Shown here piece after piece: positions 8,109-18,616 of a DNA stretch of 20,000 nucleotides. Both the position numbers and the translations under genes were made by a program. The notes under the pieces are model-generated. The model was not told the origin of the DNA and did not search any database. It saw only the letters and a list, made by a program, of their open reading frames with translations. The DNA comes from an uncultured virus (IMG/VR IMGVR_UViG_3300042868_010712). Lineage: Duplodnaviria; Heunggongvirae; Uroviricota; Caudoviricetes. The number at the start of each line of letters is the position of its first letter. Positions within the stretch are counted from its first letter, which is position 1. The stretch covers positions 58,557 through 78,556 of the IMG/VR virus record IMGVR_UViG_3300042868_010712; one strand, given 5' to 3'.

Positions 8109-10808
8109 ATGAGCGATAAAAAAGAAAAAATAGAGGTACAGCCTACCTATAAAGAAAACAGTCAGCCTGAACTAATGATTATTTTTTCTCACCCAGGGAA
8201 AGATGATCTAGAAGAAAGGGCGTTCGGTAAAAAAGGTATGGCTGAAGAGGTATTGTCTGCGCTAAATGCTGCAGATATACCTCTTGATAAAGTGTACTTT
8301 ACAGGAATGGTGAGGTATGGAATTGGTAATAAGCCTAAGCCGTCAGCAGAGGATATAGAATATTGGTCAGCCAAGCTGGACGAAGAAATTGCTGCAGTTA
8401 AGCCTAAACTCATCATGCCTTTGGGTGCTGAAGTATTCAAACGCATCATGCGTACGAATATTAAAATGGGTGATTATGTAGGCGAGATCACTGATACACC
8501 CTACGGTAAAGTTCTGGCAAACTATGCTCCTGGGATGATCGTAGTGATGGATCCTACTAAGCGTCCTGAGTTCAGGGAGATATTCGTATTGGCTAAAAAG
8601 GCGTTAGATAACAATTTAAACTATAGAGAGTTTAAGTATGTGATCATAGACGATCCTAAAGACAATATCGAGATATTGAACAACTACATTGCCCGAGGTG
8701 AGTTTAAAATAGGCTATGACGCTGAATGGTACGGAGATAAGTTTACAGACGACGAGGTAATGTATGAGTTTCAATATAGCTGCCAAAGAGATTTTGCAGT
8801 GATCTTGAATATCTCTAAAGACGGCTCCACAGAAAACCGAGAGCTTCTAGATACGATGAAGATCATGCTAGAGCACCCTAAAGCCCAGCGTATGGGCTGG
8901 AACATAAGGGCTGACGATCTACGCTTGAGGCATAGAGGATTTAATTTACCTGACGAAACGCTAGCGTTTGACGGTATGAAGGCTGTGGCTTTCTTTGACT
9001 CTAGGCTCAGTAAGGGGCTAGAAACGGGGATTAAGCACTTTACCGATTATGCTCCATACTATACAGCATTAAACAGAAAGGTTAAGGAGCATAAGCTTGG
9101 TAAAGCAGAAATGGCTAAGCTTAAGTTTTTGGAGCCTGACATATACCATCACTATTGTGCTGGTGACGCTGTGAGTCATCGTGAGGCCTGTCTGAGGATG
9201 ATGGAGATTTTTCCGGAAAAACTCAAAGATCTATACTACAACGTATATTTGCCATTAACCCATTACTTTACAGATATGGAGTTAACAGGTATTGCTGTTG
9301 ATAAGCAGGTGCTAGAAGATCTTACTGATAAGTATCTAGAAAAATATAACGCACTCAAAGATGAGCTTGTTGTCTTTCTAAAAGATGAGTTTGGTGTAGA
9401 AGAATTTAATCCTAATTCTGCTCCACAGAAAAAATCTTTGCTTTTTGAGACACTACGCGTAACTCCAGCCTACTATACAAAGTCAGGCAAATCTCCAAAG
9501 TCTAAGGCGTGGTACGATAAACAGAAGCCACAGACTCAAAAAATGTACGAGCCCAGTACAAACGGCAAGAGTCTATCTACAATAAAATTCCAGCTTGAAG
9601 AGGAGCTAGATAAATACCCAAACGACCCTGATATCATGAGGGTACATAAAGCAATTACTCTACTGCTTAGCGTAAGTCGTGTAGGCGTATTTGCTACAAA
9701 GTTTTTATCTAAAAAAGGTGTAGTGCTCGACCCTGAGTCAGAGCTAGATGAAGATATTGATGAACCCTTGAAGCAAAGCTATTGGGCAGCTATCTGTAAT
9801 GATGGTCGCGTTCATGCTAGCTTCTTTGAATGCTTAAAGAACTTCAGAGCTAGTAGTAGTCCTAATGTTCAGAATCCCGCTTCAAAGGTTTTAGCGTATA
9901 TTCCAGATATATTCGTTCCAGGGTATAGCAAACTGAGCAGCGAAGAACAGCAATCGTGCAGCAAAATGCTACCTAAAAACATTAGGAATATTTTCTGTAC
10001 AGGCAACCCTGACTATTATTGGACAGAGCTTGACGTAGCTGGGGCAGATTTGGCTATTATGGCCTTTTTGTCTAGAGACGAAGACTTTATTCACGATATC
10101 AGAGCAGGCAATTTCCATCAAACAAAGATGCGAGAATACTTCAATGACGCTACCCTCACAAAGAAAGATGTGAGTAAGTATGTGATCGCCAAGAGTATTA
10201 CTTTTCGAGTCTCGTACACAGCCGGGCTAAAATTCGCAGCAATGCCCATTCAAGCTGATATTTATGCTGAGAATGGCTTGCATGTAGGATTACATACTTT
10301 AGAGTATGCGCTTGAGACTTGGGAGAGATATCGCAAGTACATGGCCTACAGAGACAGATGTACTGACGAAGTTAAAAACCATAAGCGTATCACGAACGCC
10401 AGAGGGTTGGTTTTAAACTACGAAGAAACAGATAATTTCGGTATTCTTGCCGGTTGGATGAATGAAAGCTTGGCTTTTCCCGTGGCCAGCGAGCTTGCAT
10501 GGTTTATGTGGGAGTGTTCTGTAAATCTAAAAAACCTTCTAAAGAAAGAAGGCTTATGGATGAAGTACATATACCCAGTAAATACTGTGCATGATGCAGG
10601 CTATTGGGCTGTGCACAAAGATTTGGTAAATGATAATTATATCCAGGAAGTTCTCAAATATGTATTCTGCCACCATACAAAGCTAGCCACCGGAGATAAT
10701 GTAGGTTGCGAGCTGGCCATCATGGATAGATGGAAAGGTAAAGAAAAAGTATTTGAGAGAGAAACAGCCTGGAACTTTGAAAAGAACACATGGGAATGGA
10801 AAAAGTAA
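8109..10808 (+). CDS. Family A DNA polymerase with N-terminal UDG-like domain and 3'-5' exonuclease
   Basis: The N-terminal ~165 aa are UDG family-4-like (FSHPG, VYFTGMVR, KPSAEDI, LDEEIAAVKPKLIMPLGAEVFK). ExoI YDAEW, ExoII GWNIRAD, ExoIII YCAGD; DMELTGIAVD; FNPNS; RASSSPNVQN; motif A ELDVAGADL; motif B AKSITFRVSY; motif C TVHDA. Confidence 0.92.
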   Translation: MSDKKEKIEVQPTYKENSQPELMIIFSHPGKDDLEERAFGKKGMAEEVLSALNAADIPLDKVYFTGMVRYGIGNKPKPSAEDIEYWSAKLDEEIAAVKPKLIMPLGAEVFKRIMRTNIKMGDYVGEITDTPYGKVLANYAPGMIVVMDPTKRPEFREIFVLAKKALDNNLNYREFKYVIIDDPKDNIEILNNYIARGEFKIGYDAEWYGDKFTDDEVMYEFQYSCQRDFAVILNISKDGSTENRELLDTMKIMLEHPKAQRMGWNIRADDLRLRHRGFNLPDETLAFDGMKAVAFFDSRLSKGLETGIKHFTDYAPYYTALNRKVKEHKLGKAEMAKLKFLEPDIYHHYCAGDAVSHREACLRMMEIFPEKLKDLYYNVYLPLTHYFTDMELTGIAVDKQVLEDLTDKYLEKYNALKDELVVFLKDEFGVEEFNPNSAPQKKSLLFETLRVTPAYYTKSGKSPKSKAWYDKQKPQTQKMYEPSTNGKSLSTIKFQLEEELDKYPNDPDIMRVHKAITLLLSVSRVGVFATKFLSKKGVVLDPESELDEDIDEPLKQSYWAAICNDGRVHASFFECLKNFRASSSPNVQNPASKVLAYIPDIFVPGYSKLSSEEQQSCSKMLPKNIRNIFCTGNPDYYWTELDVAGADLAIMAFLSRDEDFIHDIRAGNFHQTKMREYFNDATLTKKDVSKYVIAKSITFRVSYTAGLKFAAMPIQADIYAENGLHVGLHTLEYALETWERYRKYMAYRDRCTDEVKNHKRITNARGLVLNYEETDNFGILAGWMNESLAFPVASELAWFMWECSVNLKNLLKKEGLWMKYIYPVNTVHDAGYWAVHKDLVNDNYIQEVLKYVFCHHTKLATGDNVGCELAIMDRWKGKEKVFERETAWNFEKNTWEWKK

Positions 10809-11368
10809 AATATATAAAACTAGGTAGCAATGGTCATATAGCTATAGTAGATGCTGAAGACTACGATGATCTTGTTAAACATAAGTGGGGAGTTAAAAAA
10901 GGAAAATCCACTGCATACGCAGTTAGACATAAAAAGAAAAACGAAGTACTAATAGCGGCTAAAAAGGTCCGTATGCATAGAGAGATATTATCAAAAATAT
11001 CTGAGATACCAGAAAAAATGGTTATAGATCATATAAACCATAACGGTCTAGACAATAGAAAAGCTAACTTACGAGTATGCACTGTTTCTGAAAATGTCAG
11101 GAACAGTAGAACGTTTAAAAATAAAAAAGTTAAATACAAAGGTGTTTTTATGGATCTAAGCAGCGCTAAAAACCCGTACAGGGCCTGTATCAGAGTTGAC
11201 GGCAAACGTATAAGTCTAGGACAATATCCTACACCAGAAAAAGCAGCTAGAGCTTATAATGCAGCAGCTGTGAAATACTTTGGAGCTTTTGCCTACTTAA
11301 ACGATGTGCCTGATACAGACGAAGAAGACTCAAAAGAGTTGACGCAATCCGAGCTTGAGCTGTCATGA
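10790..11368 (+). CDS. HNH endonuclease with C-terminal AP2 DNA-binding domain (free-standing homing endonuclease)
   Basis: RMHREI...VIDHINHNGLDNRKANLRVCTVSENVRN (HNH) followed by YKGV...YRACIRVDGKRISLGQYPTPEKAARAYNAAAVKYFGAFAYLN (AP2). Confidence 0.93.
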   Translation: MGMEKVKYIKLGSNGHIAIVDAEDYDDLVKHKWGVKKGKSTAYAVRHKKKNEVLIAAKKVRMHREILSKISEIPEKMVIDHINHNGLDNRKANLRVCTVSENVRNSRTFKNKKVKYKGVFMDLSSAKNPYRACIRVDGKRISLGQYPTPEKAARAYNAAAVKYFGAFAYLNDVPDTDEEDSKELTQSELELS

Positions 11369-12087
11369 CTAGGTTTAAATTGACCAACAACAGCAAAGTC
11401 AGATTTAAAGCTAATCACTATAATACGTTTAGCCTGACGCAAGGAGACCCTAAAGAAGGAGGCACATGCCCTGGTATGACAGAAGGACCAGGAGGATGTG
11501 CCGAGAAATGCTACGATAAAAATCTAAGAAAGTTATATAAAGCATACGCTAGTGTTGAAGATCACAACACTTCACTAGTAGTAGATAAATCTCCTGCAGA
11601 TATGTATGAGACTATCAAGAATTCTGTAATGTACTGGTTGTTAAGTGGAGGCAATAGTACTCCCTACTTCCGCATACATACAGGAGGAGATTTTTATAAC
11701 GAGGAGTATGCGAAAGCATGGGTCAAGGTAATGCAAGAGTACCCAGGAATAAATTTTTGGGCATACACCAGATCATTGTTTTGTGTTCCTATTCTTGCAG
11801 AAGTTAAAAATTTAACCTTGTATCTAAGCTGCGACCCAGTTAACAAGGACAAAGTACTGAAAGTATACTCAGGCTATAGAAATTATCACAACATAGCAAT
11901 AGCGTGGATGGGTAATGAAATTCCTGAAAATTTATTTTCAGACAAAGCTTTTTTAGTTTGCCCTGAAGTTACGGGTAAGCTAAAAAATACAAAGACGGAA
12001 GGCGCTTGCTCTAGATGTAGAGCTTGCGTTGACCGTAAACTAAAAAACGGAAAAACAAGACACATACAGTTTCCTATCCACAGGTAA
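11365..12087 (+). CDS. Phage 'gene product 88'-like Cys-rich protein (putative Fe-S, radical-SAM-like)
   Basis: TCPG-x7-CAEKCY, FRIHTGGDFY, FWAYTRS, NLTLYLSCD and C-terminal CP...CSRCRAC match my recollection of the Gp88 family pattern. Confidence 0.7.
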   Translation: MTRFKLTNNSKVRFKANHYNTFSLTQGDPKEGGTCPGMTEGPGGCAEKCYDKNLRKLYKAYASVEDHNTSLVVDKSPADMYETIKNSVMYWLLSGGNSTPYFRIHTGGDFYNEEYAKAWVKVMQEYPGINFWAYTRSLFCVPILAEVKNLTLYLSCDPVNKDKVLKVYSGYRNYHNIAIAWMGNEIPENLFSDKAFLVCPEVTGKLKNTKTEGACSRCRACVDRKLKNGKTRHIQFPIHR

Positions 12088-12505: not shown

Positions 12506-12766
12506 ATGAACACATACAAAATCGAAATCGCAGACAAGACCGGACACACAACTGTAGCTGACCTGACGCTAGATCAGGCAGTAGACGGAATTCTGGAGCA
12601 CGCCGAGAACAATGCCCGCTGGGTATTCATTAACGGCGAAAAGTTTGAGTTCCAAGGAACCAACTATCGTGCAGAAGAGAACCTCCAAAAGCTTCGAGGC
12701 AAACTCGAGGCAGTGGAAGATCCTGCTGTGCTCCTGACCGGTATTCTGATTGGCGGTCTCAAGTAA
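12506..12766 (+). CDS. Ubiquitin-like (beta-grasp, ThiS/MoaD/Ub superfamily) protein with GG motif and 2-aa C-terminal extension (86 aa)
   Basis: Likely start ATG 12506 (MNTYKIEIADKTGHTTV...). Pattern strand-strand-helix (LTLDQAVDGILEHA), then WVFINGE, then terminal strand VLLTGILIGG-LK*. Neighbouring JAB and E1 genes support the call. Confidence 0.8.
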   Translation: MNTYKIEIADKTGHTTVADLTLDQAVDGILEHAENNARWVFINGEKFEFQGTNYRAEENLQKLRGKLEAVEDPAVLLTGILIGGLK

Positions 12767-12788
12767 ATCAGACAGATCAATTAAAATC

Positions 12789-12826
12789 AAACCCCCTGAT
12801 GATTGCTCATCAGGGGGTTTCTTTTT
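12789..12826 (+). terminator. Intrinsic (Rho-independent) terminator after the Ubl gene
   Basis: Perfect 14-bp inverted repeat AAACCCCCTGATGA-TTGC-TCATCAGGGGGTTT running into TTTCTTTTT, starting 22 nt after the Ubl stop. Confidence 0.85.
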
Positions 12827-12870
12827 ACCCTTCGGGGGAGACACATACCACTTATAAAATAATAAATACT

Positions 12871-14973
12871 ATGGACCTACCTTATAAATCTTTTTTAAAA
12901 ATAGCCAAACAAACACAAACATTAAGCAAGTACGTCAAGACAATGGACGTAAGCATCGATAAATCTACTGAATATGTGGATTATCAATATGTACCTACAG
13001 TAAAAGTGGCATACACAAGCCTGCACTTCGATACGGTGGCAGACATGCATGCCTACTCCAAGTATCTGCCTATACCCACACATAAGCTTAAAATAGGTGA
13101 AGACATCAGATACCAAGATCTTCAAGCAAACATAGCTCAACGTGGCGGATGGGACAATACGCACGTTATGCAATTTTTAAGACAGGATAGCTCTAAGGGC
13201 GAGCCTTCCGTAAAGCTTATCCCTGAAGAAACAGCGTATGCTTTTCGCCCTAATATAATCAAGCTCGCTCCTATCGAGTATACAGAAGGAGACTATACAT
13301 ACAGAATCCTTACAAACCAGAGTAGTAAAAACTATACCGCTCGTATTCGAGTTATAGCTAGAAACGATGAGCCTATTTACGATTACCTGGATAAAGGGTT
13401 TTTCGTAATGACTGTTAATGAAAAATCTGACGAATTAACTAAGCCTGCGTTTGTTGTGTCGGACAGCTATGATATGAATACTGCACATATTTTTATGATG
13501 TGCAAGCTACAGCATAACCTAATCAGTATGCTGAAAGACGAATGCTTTGTGAGTAAGTATGACGCAGAAATGCTTAAACTTAAAATGCTCAGAAAGCTAA
13601 CTCCTGAAGCTAAAGCGTCATACTTGAAGCATTCGAAGGCGATTGATGAAGACTATCGTAAGAATACTACACTGGTAGTAGTTGGGAAATTGCTTAGCGG
13701 CGAAATTAAAAAAACGACTATTAGAGAAGTAGAGTTTTCAGCCACAACGGCGAAGTATGAGAATACTGAAATTGAAGCCGAGGACCTTATAAATGTACTG
13801 TCAAGAGACCTCGATTTTAATAGCGAGTTTGACATCTATGCTGTGGTTCAACTCTATGCTAATTATGCTGAAAAGTGCTTGGACGCTAAAGGCTGGAATC
13901 ACACAGACATTGATAACATCAATGCAGGCGAAAATGAGCTCAAAAAGAAGAGTCTGCCTACGTTTAAAATAAACGGAATCAGTATATCTGCGGCAGTTTC
14001 TTATACAGGACAAAGGTACTTAAACGACACCAGGATTAATCAGGACGAGGTGGCAAAGGCCATATACCGCGCTTCCTGCTATAGGTCAGCTGAAGACTAT
14101 AATTTGTTCCTAAAGAGTATCAGTCGCATGAGTATCAAGAGACATGATATTATTGCAAATGGCCTGCAGGTAAAGATTCACGCAGGTATGAGTGCAGAAG
14201 AATACAGAGAAGCCACTCCTGGTGTAAACGCTCCTGCGCTTAAGTTTGTAATTGATAAGCAAGATAAACGTATCAAGCTGTACATTGACGAAAATCGACA
14301 AGTGCCTGTAGATATCAGCGGGCTGATCAAGAAGGTGCAAACGATCAACTCAAAAACAAACAATAAATCGTTTTACGATAGGTCAGAAAACGCATACAAT
14401 TATATCAACAGAGATCATGTCTGGGCAGCTACAGAGCTTACAAGAGCCCTGATTGAGTTCACTACGTTCCCTGTAAAGTTTAAGAATCTGGAAGATGGTA
14501 CTGTAGTAGAAAAAGTCCAGGTTCTGATATCTAAAGACGACGTCGCTAAACTGTTGAAGGTAGTTGATGACCAGAACAAAGCTAAAATCGAAAGATCTAA
14601 GCAGTTCTTGAGTACTGCAGTAAAGCTTACAGGAGCTGAAGAAATTGAGTTCTTGGGACAAAAGGCCTATAGGGTAAAGGGTAGCCTTAGAGAATACGCT
14701 ATAGTCATCAGTAACGCCAAGGTCTACGATTATGAGACAAAGCAATATCGCTGCATTGTTAATGACAGGCACTATAAAGGTGCAGGTTATGACGACGTGG
14801 CCAGCAGACTATTGGCTCTCAAGAACGACTCTGTGATGCAAGATCATATCGGCACACTGAGAGGAGCACAGGGTCAGCCAGGAGCTGAAAACGCGCACAA
14901 CGATTACAGACCTGAGCGCGACGTTCAGGACGTAATTAGTCCAATTGTAGATAAAGCATTCGAGAAAGTATAA
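12871..14973 (+). CDS. Large hypothetical protein (700 aa) within the Ubl-JAB-E1 cassette
   Basis: The track start at 12799 lies inside the terminator stem; ATG 12871 follows AATAAATACT. No canonical family recognised. The C-terminal region has YRVKGSLREYAI...YRCIV...DDVASRLLALKND. Ends 2 nt before the JAB gene. Confidence 0.85.
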   Translation: MDLPYKSFLKIAKQTQTLSKYVKTMDVSIDKSTEYVDYQYVPTVKVAYTSLHFDTVADMHAYSKYLPIPTHKLKIGEDIRYQDLQANIAQRGGWDNTHVMQFLRQDSSKGEPSVKLIPEETAYAFRPNIIKLAPIEYTEGDYTYRILTNQSSKNYTARIRVIARNDEPIYDYLDKGFFVMTVNEKSDELTKPAFVVSDSYDMNTAHIFMMCKLQHNLISMLKDECFVSKYDAEMLKLKMLRKLTPEAKASYLKHSKAIDEDYRKNTTLVVVGKLLSGEIKKTTIREVEFSATTAKYENTEIEAEDLINVLSRDLDFNSEFDIYAVVQLYANYAEKCLDAKGWNHTDIDNINAGENELKKKSLPTFKINGISISAAVSYTGQRYLNDTRINQDEVAKAIYRASCYRSAEDYNLFLKSISRMSIKRHDIIANGLQVKIHAGMSAEEYREATPGVNAPALKFVIDKQDKRIKLYIDENRQVPVDISGLIKKVQTINSKTNNKSFYDRSENAYNYINRDHVWAATELTRALIEFTTFPVKFKNLEDGTVVEKVQVLISKDDVAKLLKVVDDQNKAKIERSKQFLSTAVKLTGAEEIEFLGQKAYRVKGSLREYAIVISNAKVYDYETKQYRCIVNDRHYKGAGYDDVASRLLALKNDSVMQDHIGTLRGAQGQPGAENAHNDYRPERDVQDVISPIVDKAFEKV

Positions 14974-14975
14974 TT

Positions 14976-15410
14976 ATGTATATATTCAGATACGGTATAG
15001 AATCGTTCCTTAAAGCCATGATTGGTGCTTCTCTAGAGTGTACAAGCACTAAAGAGGAGGAAGGCGGCATTATCATGGAAAAAGATGCAGTGTATGAGTT
15101 CGTAAGAGTTAAAAATGTTTACGAAGGTACAGACAGAGCCTCAGGATTATATGAGACAGATCAAGAAGAGTTGTCTCAATTAATATTCTCCAGAGTCTGT
15201 AAAGGTTGGAAAATGCATGCCAGCTTTCATACGCATCCATCGTTCAGCCCTACTCCTAGCATCCTTGACCTGGATAAGCTGTTTCAAGGCTTTAGATACA
15301 ACATCATATGGTCACCGACACACAGAACATTCTCCTATTCAGCATGGATGGGTGAAGACTCGCATGTGACATACCTACCTATTAATACAATCGAGAAATT
15401 AATTAAATAA
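14976..15410 (+). CDS. JAB/MPN+/JAMM metalloprotease (Ubl-processing/deconjugating peptidase)
   Basis: Catalytic Glu in EEGGII, VRVKN, and exact H-x-H-x7-S-x2-D motif HTHPSFSPTPSILD. Confidence 0.92.
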   Translation: MYIFRYGIESFLKAMIGASLECTSTKEEEGGIIMEKDAVYEFVRVKNVYEGTDRASGLYETDQEELSQLIFSRVCKGWKMHASFHTHPSFSPTPSILDLDKLFQGFRYNIIWSPTHRTFSYSAWMGEDSHVTYLPINTIEKLIK

Positions 15411-15411
15411 T

Positions 15412-16008
15412 ATGAAACTAGACAAAATCGCTATTGCAGGCGCAGGTGGAATCGGTTCTAACCTGCTAAGTATTCTGTTTGACTACGGCTACAACAGAAA
15501 GCAGTTCAGTTATATGGATGTTGAAGTTGACATCTATGACGATGATACTGTAGATATTAAAAACCTACTGCATCAAAACTTTAAAATTGATGACGTAGGC
15601 AAACATAAAGTTAAGGTGCTAGAAGAAAAATATATTGCGCAAGGCGTTACTCGCAGGATGACTGAGGATGACTTCAGTAAATATAATGTAATCTTCAGCT
15701 GCGTGGACAGTATGTCGTTCAGGAAGAGCCTGTATGAGTATGGCTGGAAAGCAGGAAACGATGAGTTATTCTGGGTTGACGGCAGGTGCACTAGCCGGCA
15801 GGGAGCATTGTTTACATCCGACATGCTCAGACCCGCACTAGAGCCGTTTATCAATGACTCGCAAGAAGAAGGCGGTTGCCTTCTAGCCTACGAGAAAGAA
15901 CAGAATATCAGTCATACTCTACCTACAGTGGTAGCAGCTATGATGGTGCAGGCCTTCTTGAATAAACTTAGGGGCCAGCAAACGTTCAAGTCTGTATTCA
16001 TGGTGTAA
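15412..16008 (+). CDS. ThiF/MoeB/E1-family Ubl-activating adenylyltransferase (minimal, 198 aa)
   Basis: Nucleotide-binding GAGGIGS, YDDDTVDIKNLLHQNF, DVGKHKV, IFSCVDS, WVDGR and candidate catalytic Cys in EEGGCLL. Starts 1 nt after the JAB stop. Confidence 0.93.
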   Translation: MKLDKIAIAGAGGIGSNLLSILFDYGYNRKQFSYMDVEVDIYDDDTVDIKNLLHQNFKIDDVGKHKVKVLEEKYIAQGVTRRMTEDDFSKYNVIFSCVDSMSFRKSLYEYGWKAGNDELFWVDGRCTSRQGALFTSDMLRPALEPFINDSQEEGGCLLAYEKEQNISHTLPTVVAAMMVQAFLNKLRGQQTFKSVFMV

Positions 16009-16289
16009 TGGCGGACTTAAATGAAAAACAGCAGCAGACAATAACAGCTGAAAAATATCTTCTAGGTATCCTTGACAAGATCTGCCTAACCGTAGATCTT
16101 CGTAGGGATGAGTGGGAGTTAAACAAAGATTTGCTTATAGCCATAAGTAAAAGCTATAAGACAAAAAAGAAAAAAGATACCGCATTGTTCTATAGCTATG
16201 ATCAATGCTTCAATATGCTAAAAAAACTAAATATAAAGATATCGTCAAAGTTCAAATGGTTCACAAATCTGGAAGAACACGTAAAGTAA
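16008..16289 (+). CDS. Hypothetical basic protein (93 aa), translationally coupled to E1
   Basis: TAATG overlap with the E1 stop. Confidence 0.65.
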   Translation: MADLNEKQQQTITAEKYLLGILDKICLTVDLRRDEWELNKDLLIAISKSYKTKKKKDTALFYSYDQCFNMLKKLNIKISSKFKWFTNLEEHVK

Positions 16290-16335: not shown

Positions 16336-17406
16336 ATGGCAATCATCAAACCATCACTAAAATTCGAAGGCTCAGAACTCAATCTTACGGTATCTGCCGC
16401 TCCATACATTCAAGAATCTGTCCGTAGGGCAGTGTTCAACAAAACAAACAACCAAGAGGGCGCTTACCTGTATTTCTTGCCTGCCTACAAGGCAGACTCA
16501 TCAGGTAACGGTATCTGGTACAAGAAGATCGCAGTGCGTGACAACTTCGGTACTAACTTCAAAGAAAAATACTATGTAGCTAGCAGGTCTAACGACCCAG
16601 CTGAATACTTCGCAAACAACTTCAAGATCTTGTATCCTGAGGAAGCAAAGGTTACAGACACTGAAGTGAACGGTAGGAAGTTCAAGAAGTATCCAAACTT
16701 TGGTCGCGTTACTGAACGTGTTGTATACAACGTGGCTTTTGCTCAAAGCTTGTCTACAGGCGCGCATGTGCTAGATCTGCCACTCAGGAACGGTGCGGAC
16801 AACCTGATGAACTGGCTTGAGGGTAGGGATATGACTGGCAACAGGCGTAATCCTATCAATGATCCTGATCGTTGTGTACCTGTATTTGTTAAGCTCAAGG
16901 AAAACAGCGCCAACCCTTGGATGATTCAGATTGAAAATAATTCTCCAGTACAGTTGCCAGAGCAGCTTGCTGACAGTGATTATCTCTACAATCTAGATGA
17001 AATCTTCATAAATAAGCCTAAAGAAGAAATCATTGCAAAGCTGCGTGAGATGTATTCTGCGGATGTATTTGAGGATTGCATGAACGGTTACCCTGGGCTG
17101 ACCAAGTCTAACACAGCAAGCTTCAATGTTACAGCCAAGCAGGTTACGCAGCCTGCTGTAGAATTACCTCCAGCTAGACCTCAAATGGAGATAGCCAAGG
17201 CTGTAATTAGTAGCGCTCCTGTCGCAGTGCCTGCAATAGAAATACCTAGAGCAGCGTTGACTGCACCTGCGGTTGCCGTTAATGTTCCTCTAGTGGCAAA
17301 CATCTCTGATGTTCCTGCCGCTGTAGATATATCTTCCTTGCCACCAAATCCGATGGCAGGCAAGATTAGCCGCGCAGATGCGCTTAAGTTCATCAACCAA
17401 GACTAA
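16336..17406 (+). CDS. Probable single-stranded DNA-binding protein (gp32-like) with Pro/Ala/Val-rich C-terminal tail
   Basis: YLYFLPAY resembles the gp32-type 'RFLP' strand, VVYNVA is present, the size and low-complexity tail fit, and the gene is directly upstream of RecA with an A-rich leader. The call is largely contextual. Confidence 0.55.
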   Translation: MAIIKPSLKFEGSELNLTVSAAPYIQESVRRAVFNKTNNQEGAYLYFLPAYKADSSGNGIWYKKIAVRDNFGTNFKEKYYVASRSNDPAEYFANNFKILYPEEAKVTDTEVNGRKFKKYPNFGRVTERVVYNVAFAQSLSTGAHVLDLPLRNGADNLMNWLEGRDMTGNRRNPINDPDRCVPVFVKLKENSANPWMIQIENNSPVQLPEQLADSDYLYNLDEIFINKPKEEIIAKLREMYSADVFEDCMNGYPGLTKSNTASFNVTAKQVTQPAVELPPARPQMEIAKAVISSAPVAVPAIEIPRAALTAPAVAVNVPLVANISDVPAAVDISSLPPNPMAGKISRADALKFINQD

Positions 17407-17413
17407 ATAGAAC

Positions 17414-18616
17414 ATGGATATAGACACATACCTGAACTCGATCAAGAAAAACTTCGGCAAGACCTTCAAGTCTGAAGCTGTTAATCTTGAACTAAATACG
17501 GCAGATAAAGAACTCCCGCCTACAGGCATTGTGTTGGATAACCCGTTGTTAGAGTACGCATTCGACCGTAGGTTTATGGCCTACGGTCGGTGTTATCTAC
17601 TCTACGGCAAGAAGGGCTGCTCCAAAACAACGCTATTGTTTGACCTGGCCAAAGTATTCCAGAAAGCTGGAGGCAAGATGTTCTGGATCGAAACCGAGAA
17701 CGCTCCTGACTTCAGATATATGGAGTTACAGGGAGTAGATCCGAAGCATGTAATCTACCACAACCCTAAAAGCCTGGAAGAGGCTCTTACGTTGTGTAAG
17801 ATCATCATTCAAAACTATGCTAAGCATAGCGATGGTAAGACGCCTATACTTATCGCACTAGACAGTATTGCAGGGGCTAGTACTGACTATGAGCGCGATC
17901 AGGATGTGATTGGTCAAACCAAAGTTGGCGAGCACGCAAAGCTGATGAGTGCATTCTATAGGAATATTATTCCGTATCTAGAGTGTGAAAACATGGTATT
18001 TGTTGCTACCAATCAGCTCAAAGAGCAGATTGGCGGAATGACAGGCTTCGGTACAGAAAAGCCAGAAGCATTGATTGGTGGCGAAGCTCAGCGCTTTAAC
18101 TCTACCTATCAATTCAAAGTGGCTCGTATCAAGGATAATCTTGAAGAAGATCATATGGGGGTAAAGCGTAAGTCAGGCTCTACCCACACCCTGACGGTAA
18201 AGCGTAATAAGCTTGGTCGTGAGGGTAATAGCCAGAAGATTGAATTCGATATCCATATCAATGGAGGTATTGATTGGTACTCTCCTCTTGTACGCCTGCT
18301 GGGTGAAAATTATCCTGCACTGGTAGGTAAAACTGGAGGCTGGTATACCTGGAAAACTCCAGAAGTACCATTCACTATTGATGTTGAAGGAGAACAGCAA
18401 ACCCATAAAATTGACACAGAAAAGAAATTCCGTGAGCAAGATCTAGGGTTTGTAATCCAGAATAGTAGCGCAGCCAAAGAGATAGTGCGCAAAGCATTTG
18501 GTATACCAGATATGCCTGCAGCTGAGCTTGAGATGGAAATCGAAAAAGTTAACAAGACAAAACGTAAAAGAGTAAGTGAATTAGAAGTTGAACCACTAGT
18601 CGAAAGCTATGAGTAA
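17414..18616 (+). CDS. recA: RecA/UvsX-family recombinase
   Basis: LPPTG, GRCYLLYG, P-loop GKKGCSKTT, WIETENA, GVDP, Walker B IALDSIAG, VGEHAKLMS, ATNQLKEQIG, GGEAQRFNS, VKRNKL, GGID and GGWY. Confidence 0.93.
   Translation: MDIDTYLNSIKKNFGKTFKSEAVNLELNTADKELPPTGIVLDNPLLEYAFDRRFMAYGRCYLLYGKKGCSKTTLLFDLAKVFQKAGGKMFWIETENAPDFRYMELQGVDPKHVIYHNPKSLEEALTLCKIIIQNYAKHSDGKTPILIALDSIAGASTDYERDQDVIGQTKVGEHAKLMSAFYRNIIPYLECENMVFVATNQLKEQIGGMTGFGTEKPEALIGGEAQRFNSTYQFKVARIKDNLEEDHMGVKRKSGSTHTLTVKRNKLGREGNSQKIEFDIHINGGIDWYSPLVRLLGENYPALVGKTGGWYTWKTPEVPFTIDVEGEQQTHKIDTEKKFREQDLGFVIQNSSAAKEIVRKAFGIPDMPAAELEMEIEKVNKTKRKRVSELEVEPLVESYE

Follow-up and report, generated by a model that had tools for sequence, protein, structure and literature searches.

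The final 20 kb of a 78,556-bp contig from an uncultured virus (IMG/VR record IMGVR_UViG_3300042868_010712, positions 58,557 to 78,556; contig G000), called the window throughout, carries four genes that together look like a virus-owned cassette for activation and conjugation of a ubiquitin-like protein (Ubl). Its four parts would be a tag, a JAB peptidase, a ThiF-type enzyme and a carrier or ligase, and the evidence tilts modestly towards this reading. The cassette comprises the following features.

12506..12766, + strand: ubiquitin-like protein, 86 amino acids (aa), C-terminus ...LIGG-LK
12789..12830, + strand: terminator-like hairpin (12789-12820; 14-bp stem, 7 G-C) plus T-run, between the Ubl and 700-aa genes
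12871..14973, + strand: 700-aa protein of no described family, candidate Ubl carrier/ligase
14557..14850, + strand: C-terminal UBC/UEV-shaped domain of the 700-aa protein, approximately residues 563-660, with Cys628 at codon 14752-14754
14976..15410, + strand: JAMM/JAB metallopeptidase, 144 aa, Pfam Prok-JAB
15412..16008, + strand: minimal E1-like adenylyltransferase of the ThiF family, 198 aa, with GxGGxG at residues 10-15, D99 and Cys156 (codon 15877-15879)

The initial annotation had listed four co-oriented genes here. All four open reading frames (ORFs) are present on the + strand at 12506-16008, and the short gaps described among the last three were measured as 2 nt (14974-14975) and 1 nt (15411). 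Judged from sequence, all four are genuine genes that did not arise by chance, since each is kept in related viral loci. Our sample consists of 25 close loci, one intermediate locus (L031) and 29 distant loci found with alignment A7. Alongside the 700-aa gene, the close loci contain Ubl in 24 of 25 cases, JAB in 24 and ThiF in 23, and every miss, including the single one for Ubl, lies where a contig ends; the 700-aa gene is always accompanied by Ubl, JAB and ThiF genes. The whole module is syntenic in the 25 close loci, with the order DnaB-PolA-GP88-(108-aa)-Ubl-big-JAB-ThiF-(93-aa)-356-aa-RecA, where "big" stands for the 700-aa protein and its counterparts. As this synteny spans the entire module, it cannot by itself set the cassette apart from its surroundings.

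The distant clade decides this point. There, the big protein is only about 20% identical, the gene order is big-Ubl-JAB-ThiF, and the flanking genes encode class II ribonucleotide reductase, dUTPase, a metallophosphatase, a sigma-70 factor and an ordinary PolA (45 proteins scanned in three loci). The big gene, Ubl and ThiF were each found in 29/29 of these loci, and JAB in 27/29 by hidden Markov model (HMM) and additionally in L038 by eye; L039, the other HMM miss, has the same scores as L038 for the remaining three genes. The intermediate locus L031 keeps the close-clade order. Because the distant clade differs in gene order and flanking genes yet keeps the four genes, they are, on this comparison, a functional unit beyond mere synteny of a replication module. 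Co-occurrence in related phages had been named in advance as a test of the proposal, and the four genes do stay together across deep clades despite changed order and neighbours. By its distribution, the cassette appears to behave like a core gene set, not like an accessory anti-defence gene.

Three further genes were considered as a fifth component and rejected. In 12/25 close loci a gene of 208-231 aa, DEDD-exonuclease-like by eye and starting with 'Y(I)I.(D/H)IET.PL', stands between the 700-aa gene and JAB (e.g., L009:8003-8644); it lies elsewhere or is missing in other loci and is absent from G000. The gene is unrelated, and its presence at this position indicates that tight spacing between the big gene and JAB is not essential. 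Directly upstream of the distant-clade big gene, a protein of approximately 135 aa is encoded (L040:7529-7960 and 14 other distinct loci), with 15/16 distinct sequences alike; it has no Pfam match in the three loci scanned (L040, L054, L058) and no homologue in G000. The 93-aa ORF that follows ThiF is confined to the close clade and L031.

The putative tag ends in a pair of glycines that is invariant in 22/22 aligned close Ubl sequences, where 0-8 unconserved residues follow, and in 17/17 distinct distant sequences, 15 of which stop exactly after ...LVGG. The structure model has beta-grasp topology with a predicted local distance difference test score (pLDDT) of 75, and its top fold matches are weak and mostly of Ubl type; the protein did not match Prok_Ub. 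The earlier description of the 86-aa product as beta-grasp-like with a terminal Gly-Gly is thereby supported, the fold only tentatively. In L031, the Ubl gene (L031:7445-7930) runs approximately 75 residues past the Gly-Gly and so resembles a pro-protein or a fusion needing JAB cleavage. This 75-aa extension has no homologue among the cassette loci compared, and fused Ubl forms longer than 164 aa were not found, which is weak evidence.

The Ubl gene is followed by a hairpin, found by consensus scan, with a predicted RNA folding energy of -31.1 kcal/mol (z -4.9). By a crude script rule, a hairpin with a T-tail follows the Ubl gene in 14/21 distinct close loci, with differing stem sequences. The hairpin is a putative terminator, and its conservation after the Ubl gene suggests that the tag is expressed above the enzymes; the tag would then be made in excess over them.

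The JAB protein matches Pfam Prok-JAB with 28 bits, above the cut-off of 25 (E 2.1e-6). The residues of its zinc-site motif E...HxHx7SxxD, i.e., E27/E28, H85, H87, S95 and D98, are invariant in 24/24 aligned sequences, so that the JAMM protease with intact motif that had been proposed is borne out. Its top sequence match in the PDB is Pyrococcus JAMM1 (E 0.026), and weak similarities were recorded to the NCBIfam desampylase model (E 0.0011) and to PADLOC JAB models (best E 3.1e-4). The peptidase is kept although 15/17 distinct distant tags already end at Gly-Gly, which argues for deconjugation and not mere trimming; JAB would thus act as a deconjugating enzyme.

For ThiF, the Pfam score of 63.6 bits (E 2e-17) exceeds the cut-off of 28.1, and conservation is far above that of the adjacent genes, 82 positions being invariant among 22 close sequences. 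Across 27 sequences from both clades, 22 columns are invariant, including G10-G15, D43, D45, K66, D99, R104 and C156, while Cys126 is not conserved. The profile matches 59 distinct solved sequences of the E1 superfamily, among them UBA3, MccB, Cap2, SUMO E1, ThiF and MoeB. From its sequence, the protein looks like the ThiF/E1 enzyme of the initial annotation, with apparently intact motifs and a single adenylation domain. PADLOC E1-E2 models match weakly (best E 1.6e-5) over residues 4-82. The best NCBIfam model is PRTRC_ThiF (TIGR03736) with 47.9 bits, below its cut-off of 144.75; of the 14 plasmid records matched by tblastn, 10 are annotated as PRTRC system ThiF. In L012, the ThiF gene is split within the nucleotide-binding motif DDDTV/D.KNLLHQ by approximately 1.15 kb (L012:9303-10461). 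Within this insert, a different frame holds a LAGLIDADG-type ORF of 330 aa; the insert probably represents a group I intron that harbours a homing endonuclease.

The fourth component is the least familiar one. The full large ORF extends over 12799-14973; its likeliest start is the ATG at 12871, giving 700 aa, because the ATG at 12799 falls inside the terminator-like hairpin. Database cluster P0001, which is identical to the large protein, also has 700 aa, and none of the 107 database clusters of this family is named. Cys403 and Cys628 are invariant in 91 close sequences, and their counterparts are among only 9 invariant columns in 72 distant proteins, whose mean column identity is 16%. The structure model reaches a pLDDT of 87.4. 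Its UBC/UEV-like fold matches are weak and restricted to residues ~559-667, the best-conserved region of the protein. The model of this C-terminal domain consists of a long helix, four strands, a loop and helices; it places Cys628 in the loop, within the motif YRCIVND, about 8 residues past the fourth strand (618-620) and ahead of the next helix.

A sub-threshold match to DUF7737 at residues 577-634 was seen in 18/18 members scanned. DUF7737 also matches the control genomes of D. radiodurans and B. thetaiotaomicron; no copy was found on two Deinococcus plasmids, and no paper on this domain was found. A profile of the C-terminal domain retrieved 286 representative proteins at E <= 1e-3 and 84 at E <= 1e-10, most of them 600-780 aa long with the domain at the extreme C-terminus. 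Among 33 of these that were scanned, no Pfam match at E <= 0.001 was obtained except one weak match to DUF7737. PDB sequence and profile searches with the family alignments A3, A4 and A5 gave no meaningful match, and the ESM Atlas gave no usable one for the whole protein or for residues 555-665. In BFVD, the matches are three unnamed viral proteins only (E 9e-7 to 1e-4).

Complex prediction of the 700-aa protein with the tag gave an interface score (ipSAE) of 0.57 (runs 0.54, 0.61 and 0.57), compared with 0.00 for the highest-scoring of three controls; at least 68% of contacts are common to the runs, and the partner pLDDT does not fall below 78. The verdict of the tool is 'weak support', a mark reached by 116/157 solved complexes and 2/215 mismatched pairs, with 18 of the 157 and both passing mismatches at ipSAE 0.60 or under; these benchmark counts hold only roughly here, since our own alignments were supplied. 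The 700-aa protein is thus predicted, with weak support, to bind the Ubl. The initial annotation had called this protein an unknown. That no family has been described for it still stands, and we amend the label to probable carrier, in view of the weakly UBC/UEV-shaped last ~100 residues with their invariant cysteine. As had also been claimed, neither a sulfur-acceptor enzyme nor a recognisable E2 is present in the window, with no family-level match in Pfam, NCBIfam and PADLOC scans; on the structural models, the 700-aa protein is probably the missing carrier enzyme.

Taken together, the genes, their motifs and linkage, the weak folds and the invariant residues are observations, and from these we infer every chemical step, the direction of transfer and the targets. 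The 86-aa beta-grasp protein would be the tag. JAB would expose its Gly-Gly where a tail follows and probably also strip the tag from conjugates. The ThiF-type enzyme of 198 aa, which probably forms a homodimer as MoeB and ThiF do, would adenylate the terminal glycine and may carry the tag on the invariant Cys156, possibly as a thioester. The tag would then move to Cys628 in the E2-shaped C-terminal domain of the 700-aa protein, possibly by relay via Cys403, and would finally be ligated to a target or to the 700-aa protein itself, with the large N-terminal part selecting the target. The constant placement of the cassette among genes of replication or nucleotide metabolism is a mere hint about targets, for which the initial annotation had suggested replisome or host defence proteins.

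Several points weigh against this mechanism. For the carrier, 18 members gave no Pfam match to UQ_con or Prok-E2_A-E at E <= 1, the HPN motif is absent with VYD in its place, and Foldseek of the 700-aa protein against the PDB gave no match at E <= 0.001. Comparison of the C-terminal domain (A4) with PRTRC protein B (Prok-E2_D) by hhalign resulted in a probability of 0.1%, as did the distant-family alignment A5, the Prok-E2_D alignment used consisting of 6 sequences only. The complex prediction gave no contacts from which proximity of the Gly-Gly tail to Cys628 could be stated. For the tag, the pLDDT of 75 makes the model moderately confident only, and its fold matches are weak. The E1 ends at residue 198 and is shorter than the matched ThiF/MoeB chains (249-253 aa). 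Moreover, H in the close clade or Y in the distant clade replaces the Arg of the NxxRQ motif, aligned with 'NLNRQ' of UBA3. This Arg of E1 enzymes binds ATP. Owing to the short chain and the missing Arg, adenylation competence is assumed here.

Tagging could alternatively proceed without any E2, with ThiF alone activating and transferring the tag and the 700-aa protein serving as main target, adaptor or receptor. The archaeal SAMP/UbaA and the Thermus TtuB/TtuC systems function in this way; they lack an E2-like partner and also serve as sulfur carriers. They share with the cassette a small Gly-Gly protein, a single-domain E1 and a JAMM protease that both matures and deconjugates. The lack of a family-level E2 in our scans is in agreement with this explanation, as are the archaeal JAMM1 as best solved sequence relative of JAB and the weak desampylase match, and the predicted Ubl binding suits a receptor or target equally well as a carrier. 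In contrast to those systems, the cassette has an obligatory fourth protein, whose two cysteines are invariant across relatives of about 20% identity and thus exceed what a mere target needs, and whose best-conserved part is the UBC-shaped domain. We regard E2-independent tagging as rather unlikely.

A sulfur-carrier pathway of the ThiS/ThiF, MoaD/MoeB, CysO/Mec or QbsE/QbsD type appears improbable. Here the tag would be adenylated and thiocarboxylated and donate sulfur to a phage product, with the 700-aa protein and its two cysteines as a sulfur-using enzyme. The likeness is one of outline, as these pathways combine a beta-grasp protein ending in Gly-Gly, a ThiF-type E1 that is single-domain like that of the cassette, and a tail-trimming JAB; the layout of Ubl-GG, ThiF and JAB is also found in sulfur relays according to passages of PMC1779556. 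Yet the Pfam scans of 20 window proteins and of 45 proteins around three distant cassettes, host enzymes being outside their scope, revealed no rhodanese, cysteine desulfurase, PP-loop enzyme, ThiG, MoaE, CysM or TtuA, i.e., no sulfurtransferase or acceptor. In addition, JAB persists where the tag ends in Gly-Gly from the outset and has no tail to trim, and in both clades the cassette is surrounded by replication genes.

Genes directed against host defence usually vary between phages, and homing-endonuclease introns typically occupy conserved core genes. Very improbable, accordingly, is a counter-defence device that mimics or dismantles host Ubl immunity (Bil, CBASS Cap2/Cap3, Bub), e.g., by deconjugation or decoy flooding: each related locus in two deep clades has all four genes, placed within operons for replication or nucleotide metabolism, the ThiF gene of L012 holds such an intron, and a decoy would require JAB or the tag alone and not four genes, even though host Ubl pathways act against phages, as passages of PMC11601596 describe, and both JAB and ThiF have weak PADLOC matches.

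Among described systems, the nearest relatives of the E1 belong to PRTRC (ParB-Related, ThiF-Related Cassette; NCBIfam TIGR03734-03742), which occurs on plasmids and integrative and conjugative elements. PRTRC resembles our cassette in its small Ubl, E2-type carrier, short single-domain E1 and location on a mobile element. In the PRTRC reference from a Deinococcus plasmid, the C protein belongs to Prok_Ub and the B protein to Prok-E2_D. In contrast, the cassette ThiF stays below the PRTRC cut-off, the tag is not Prok_Ub, the carrier candidate is not Prok-E2_D and forms the end of a 700-aa protein, and the element is a large phage of virulent type. ParB and PRTRC B-F were not found among the 20 window proteins scanned with Pfam or the 9 scanned with NCBIfam. 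PRTRC itself is a predicted system, with no experimental test among the papers listed in our search.

The Bil system (BilABCD) differs in its BilD, a large IAD-AAD-CYS E1 as far as passages of PMC11601596 describe it, compared with the 198-aa single-domain E1 found here; furthermore, the cassette has no stand-alone E2 and is encoded by a virus and not by the host. PADLOC gave no match to the Bil E2, only the weak JAB and E1-E2 matches. Bub (6E/DUF6527) is characterized in the same passages by oxyester intermediates, a peptidase-E1 fusion and the DUF6527 serine protease (PMC11601596), and this route, fusion and protease were not seen in the cassette. CBASS type II combines a CD-NTase with an E1-E2 fusion and JAB, whereas no CD-NTase is found among the 20 window proteins and the PADLOC E1-E2 matches are weak. 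The cassette would work along the lines of Bil or PRTRC, but by the diagnostic features of PRTRC, Bil and CBASS it is no member of any of them.

The contig that carries the cassette is approximately 40% complete according to CheckV, and contigs bearing close relatives reach 204 kb. Markers of a large tailed phage were found by Pfam and PHROGs: tail sheath, terminase, SbcCD, helicase, primase, DnaB, UDG-PolA (uracil-DNA glycosylase fused to DNA polymerase), RecA/UvsX and resolvase. Its similarity to GenBank phages is almost nil. An N4-like identity, prompted by a 3479-aa ORF in the structural region (G000:C1:21882-32321, equal to L028:2882-13318), was rejected on account of PHROGs matches to tail sheath and minor tail proteins and the CheckV completeness of 40%. 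The sole PHROG match of this ORF is a minor tail protein segment at residues 1989-2067; by this evidence it is no N4-type virion RNA polymerase. Around the cassette, the window holds the following genes.

8109-10808: UDG-PolA DNA polymerase, upstream of the cassette
10790-11368: HNH-AP2 endonuclease gene, overlapping the end of the polymerase gene
11365-12087: GP88-family gene, upstream of the cassette (PF17338, E 2.7e-33)
between the GP88-family gene and the Ubl gene: 108-aa ORF
16008..16289, + strand: 93-aa ORF, sharing 1 nt with the ThiF stop, possible accessory gene
16336-17406: 356-aa ORF, downstream of the cassette and before RecA
17414-18616: RecA/UvsX, downstream of the cassette

The polymerase carries an N-terminal domain of the uracil-DNA-glycosylase superfamily (residues 17-156) fused to a divergent family A polymerase. 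The GP88-family gene adjoins it in 23/25 close loci (22/23 of those holding the polymerase); the encoded protein shows cysteine clusters, C-x10-C-x3-C near the N-terminus and CxxCxxC near the C-terminus. Homologues of the 93-aa ORF are present in 15/25 close loci and in L031, and in 0/29 distant loci, and no family match was found for it in Pfam, PHROG, NCBIfam or PADLOC. The 356-aa ORF precedes RecA in 23/25 close loci, both misses stopping at a contig end; the C-terminal third of its product is rich in Ala, Pro and Val. The initial annotation had placed the cassette between DNA polymerase and a single-stranded DNA-binding protein (SSB) with RecA. The flanks UDG-PolA and RecA/UvsX were recovered, while the SSB label of the 356-aa ORF found no backing, as this protein has no match in Pfam, PHROG, NCBIfam, PADLOC or the PDB sequences.

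Beyond the viral loci compared here, no copy was found in 185,579 bacterial and archaeal species, represented by one genome each and searched with alignments A1 and A7. The 50,697 GenBank phage records likewise gave no match, either to the cassette by blastn or to three big-protein homologues by tblastn, and the single distant proteins P0117 and P0214 had no match when searched in IMG/VR. Flavobacterium phage FpV4, which has a pair of ThiF and a weak JAB, was considered as a relative and rejected: alignment A5 reached a probability of 0.3-0.4% against gp52 and gp51, indicating that the FpV4 pair is a different arrangement. A literature search covering few subscription journals and no supplements returned no description of a phage-encoded cassette of this kind; the two passages of PMC7824862 that mention 'ubiquitin' describe no phage Ubl system.

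Tentatively, and with somewhat less confidence than we place in the cassette as such, we propose that large uncultured phages own a complete, self-contained Ubl conjugation pathway. Its carrier or ligase would be a new kind of enzyme, a 700-aa protein with two cysteines and a very diverged E2-shaped end, and its role would be a core function, the reversible tagging of replication-linked proteins of phage or host. Until now, Ubl conjugation in bacteria has been linked either with host defence (CBASS, Bil, Bub) or with the predicted PRTRC cassettes of mobile elements. Here, the virus itself has the kit, constantly placed among its genes for replication or nucleotide metabolism, and this holds for at least two deep lineages of large, uncultured phages. 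If the proposal is true, a bacterial virus, and not the defence of its host, would own a ubiquitin-type system, and a family comprising at least 286 representative clusters would gain a first function. At their size, the four genes lend themselves to co-expression in E. coli. If the chemistry holds, a new non-canonical carrier/ligase architecture would be on record, the minimal 198-aa E1 and the 86-aa tag would be usable as tools, and phages would be shown to employ protein tagging in their own life cycle.

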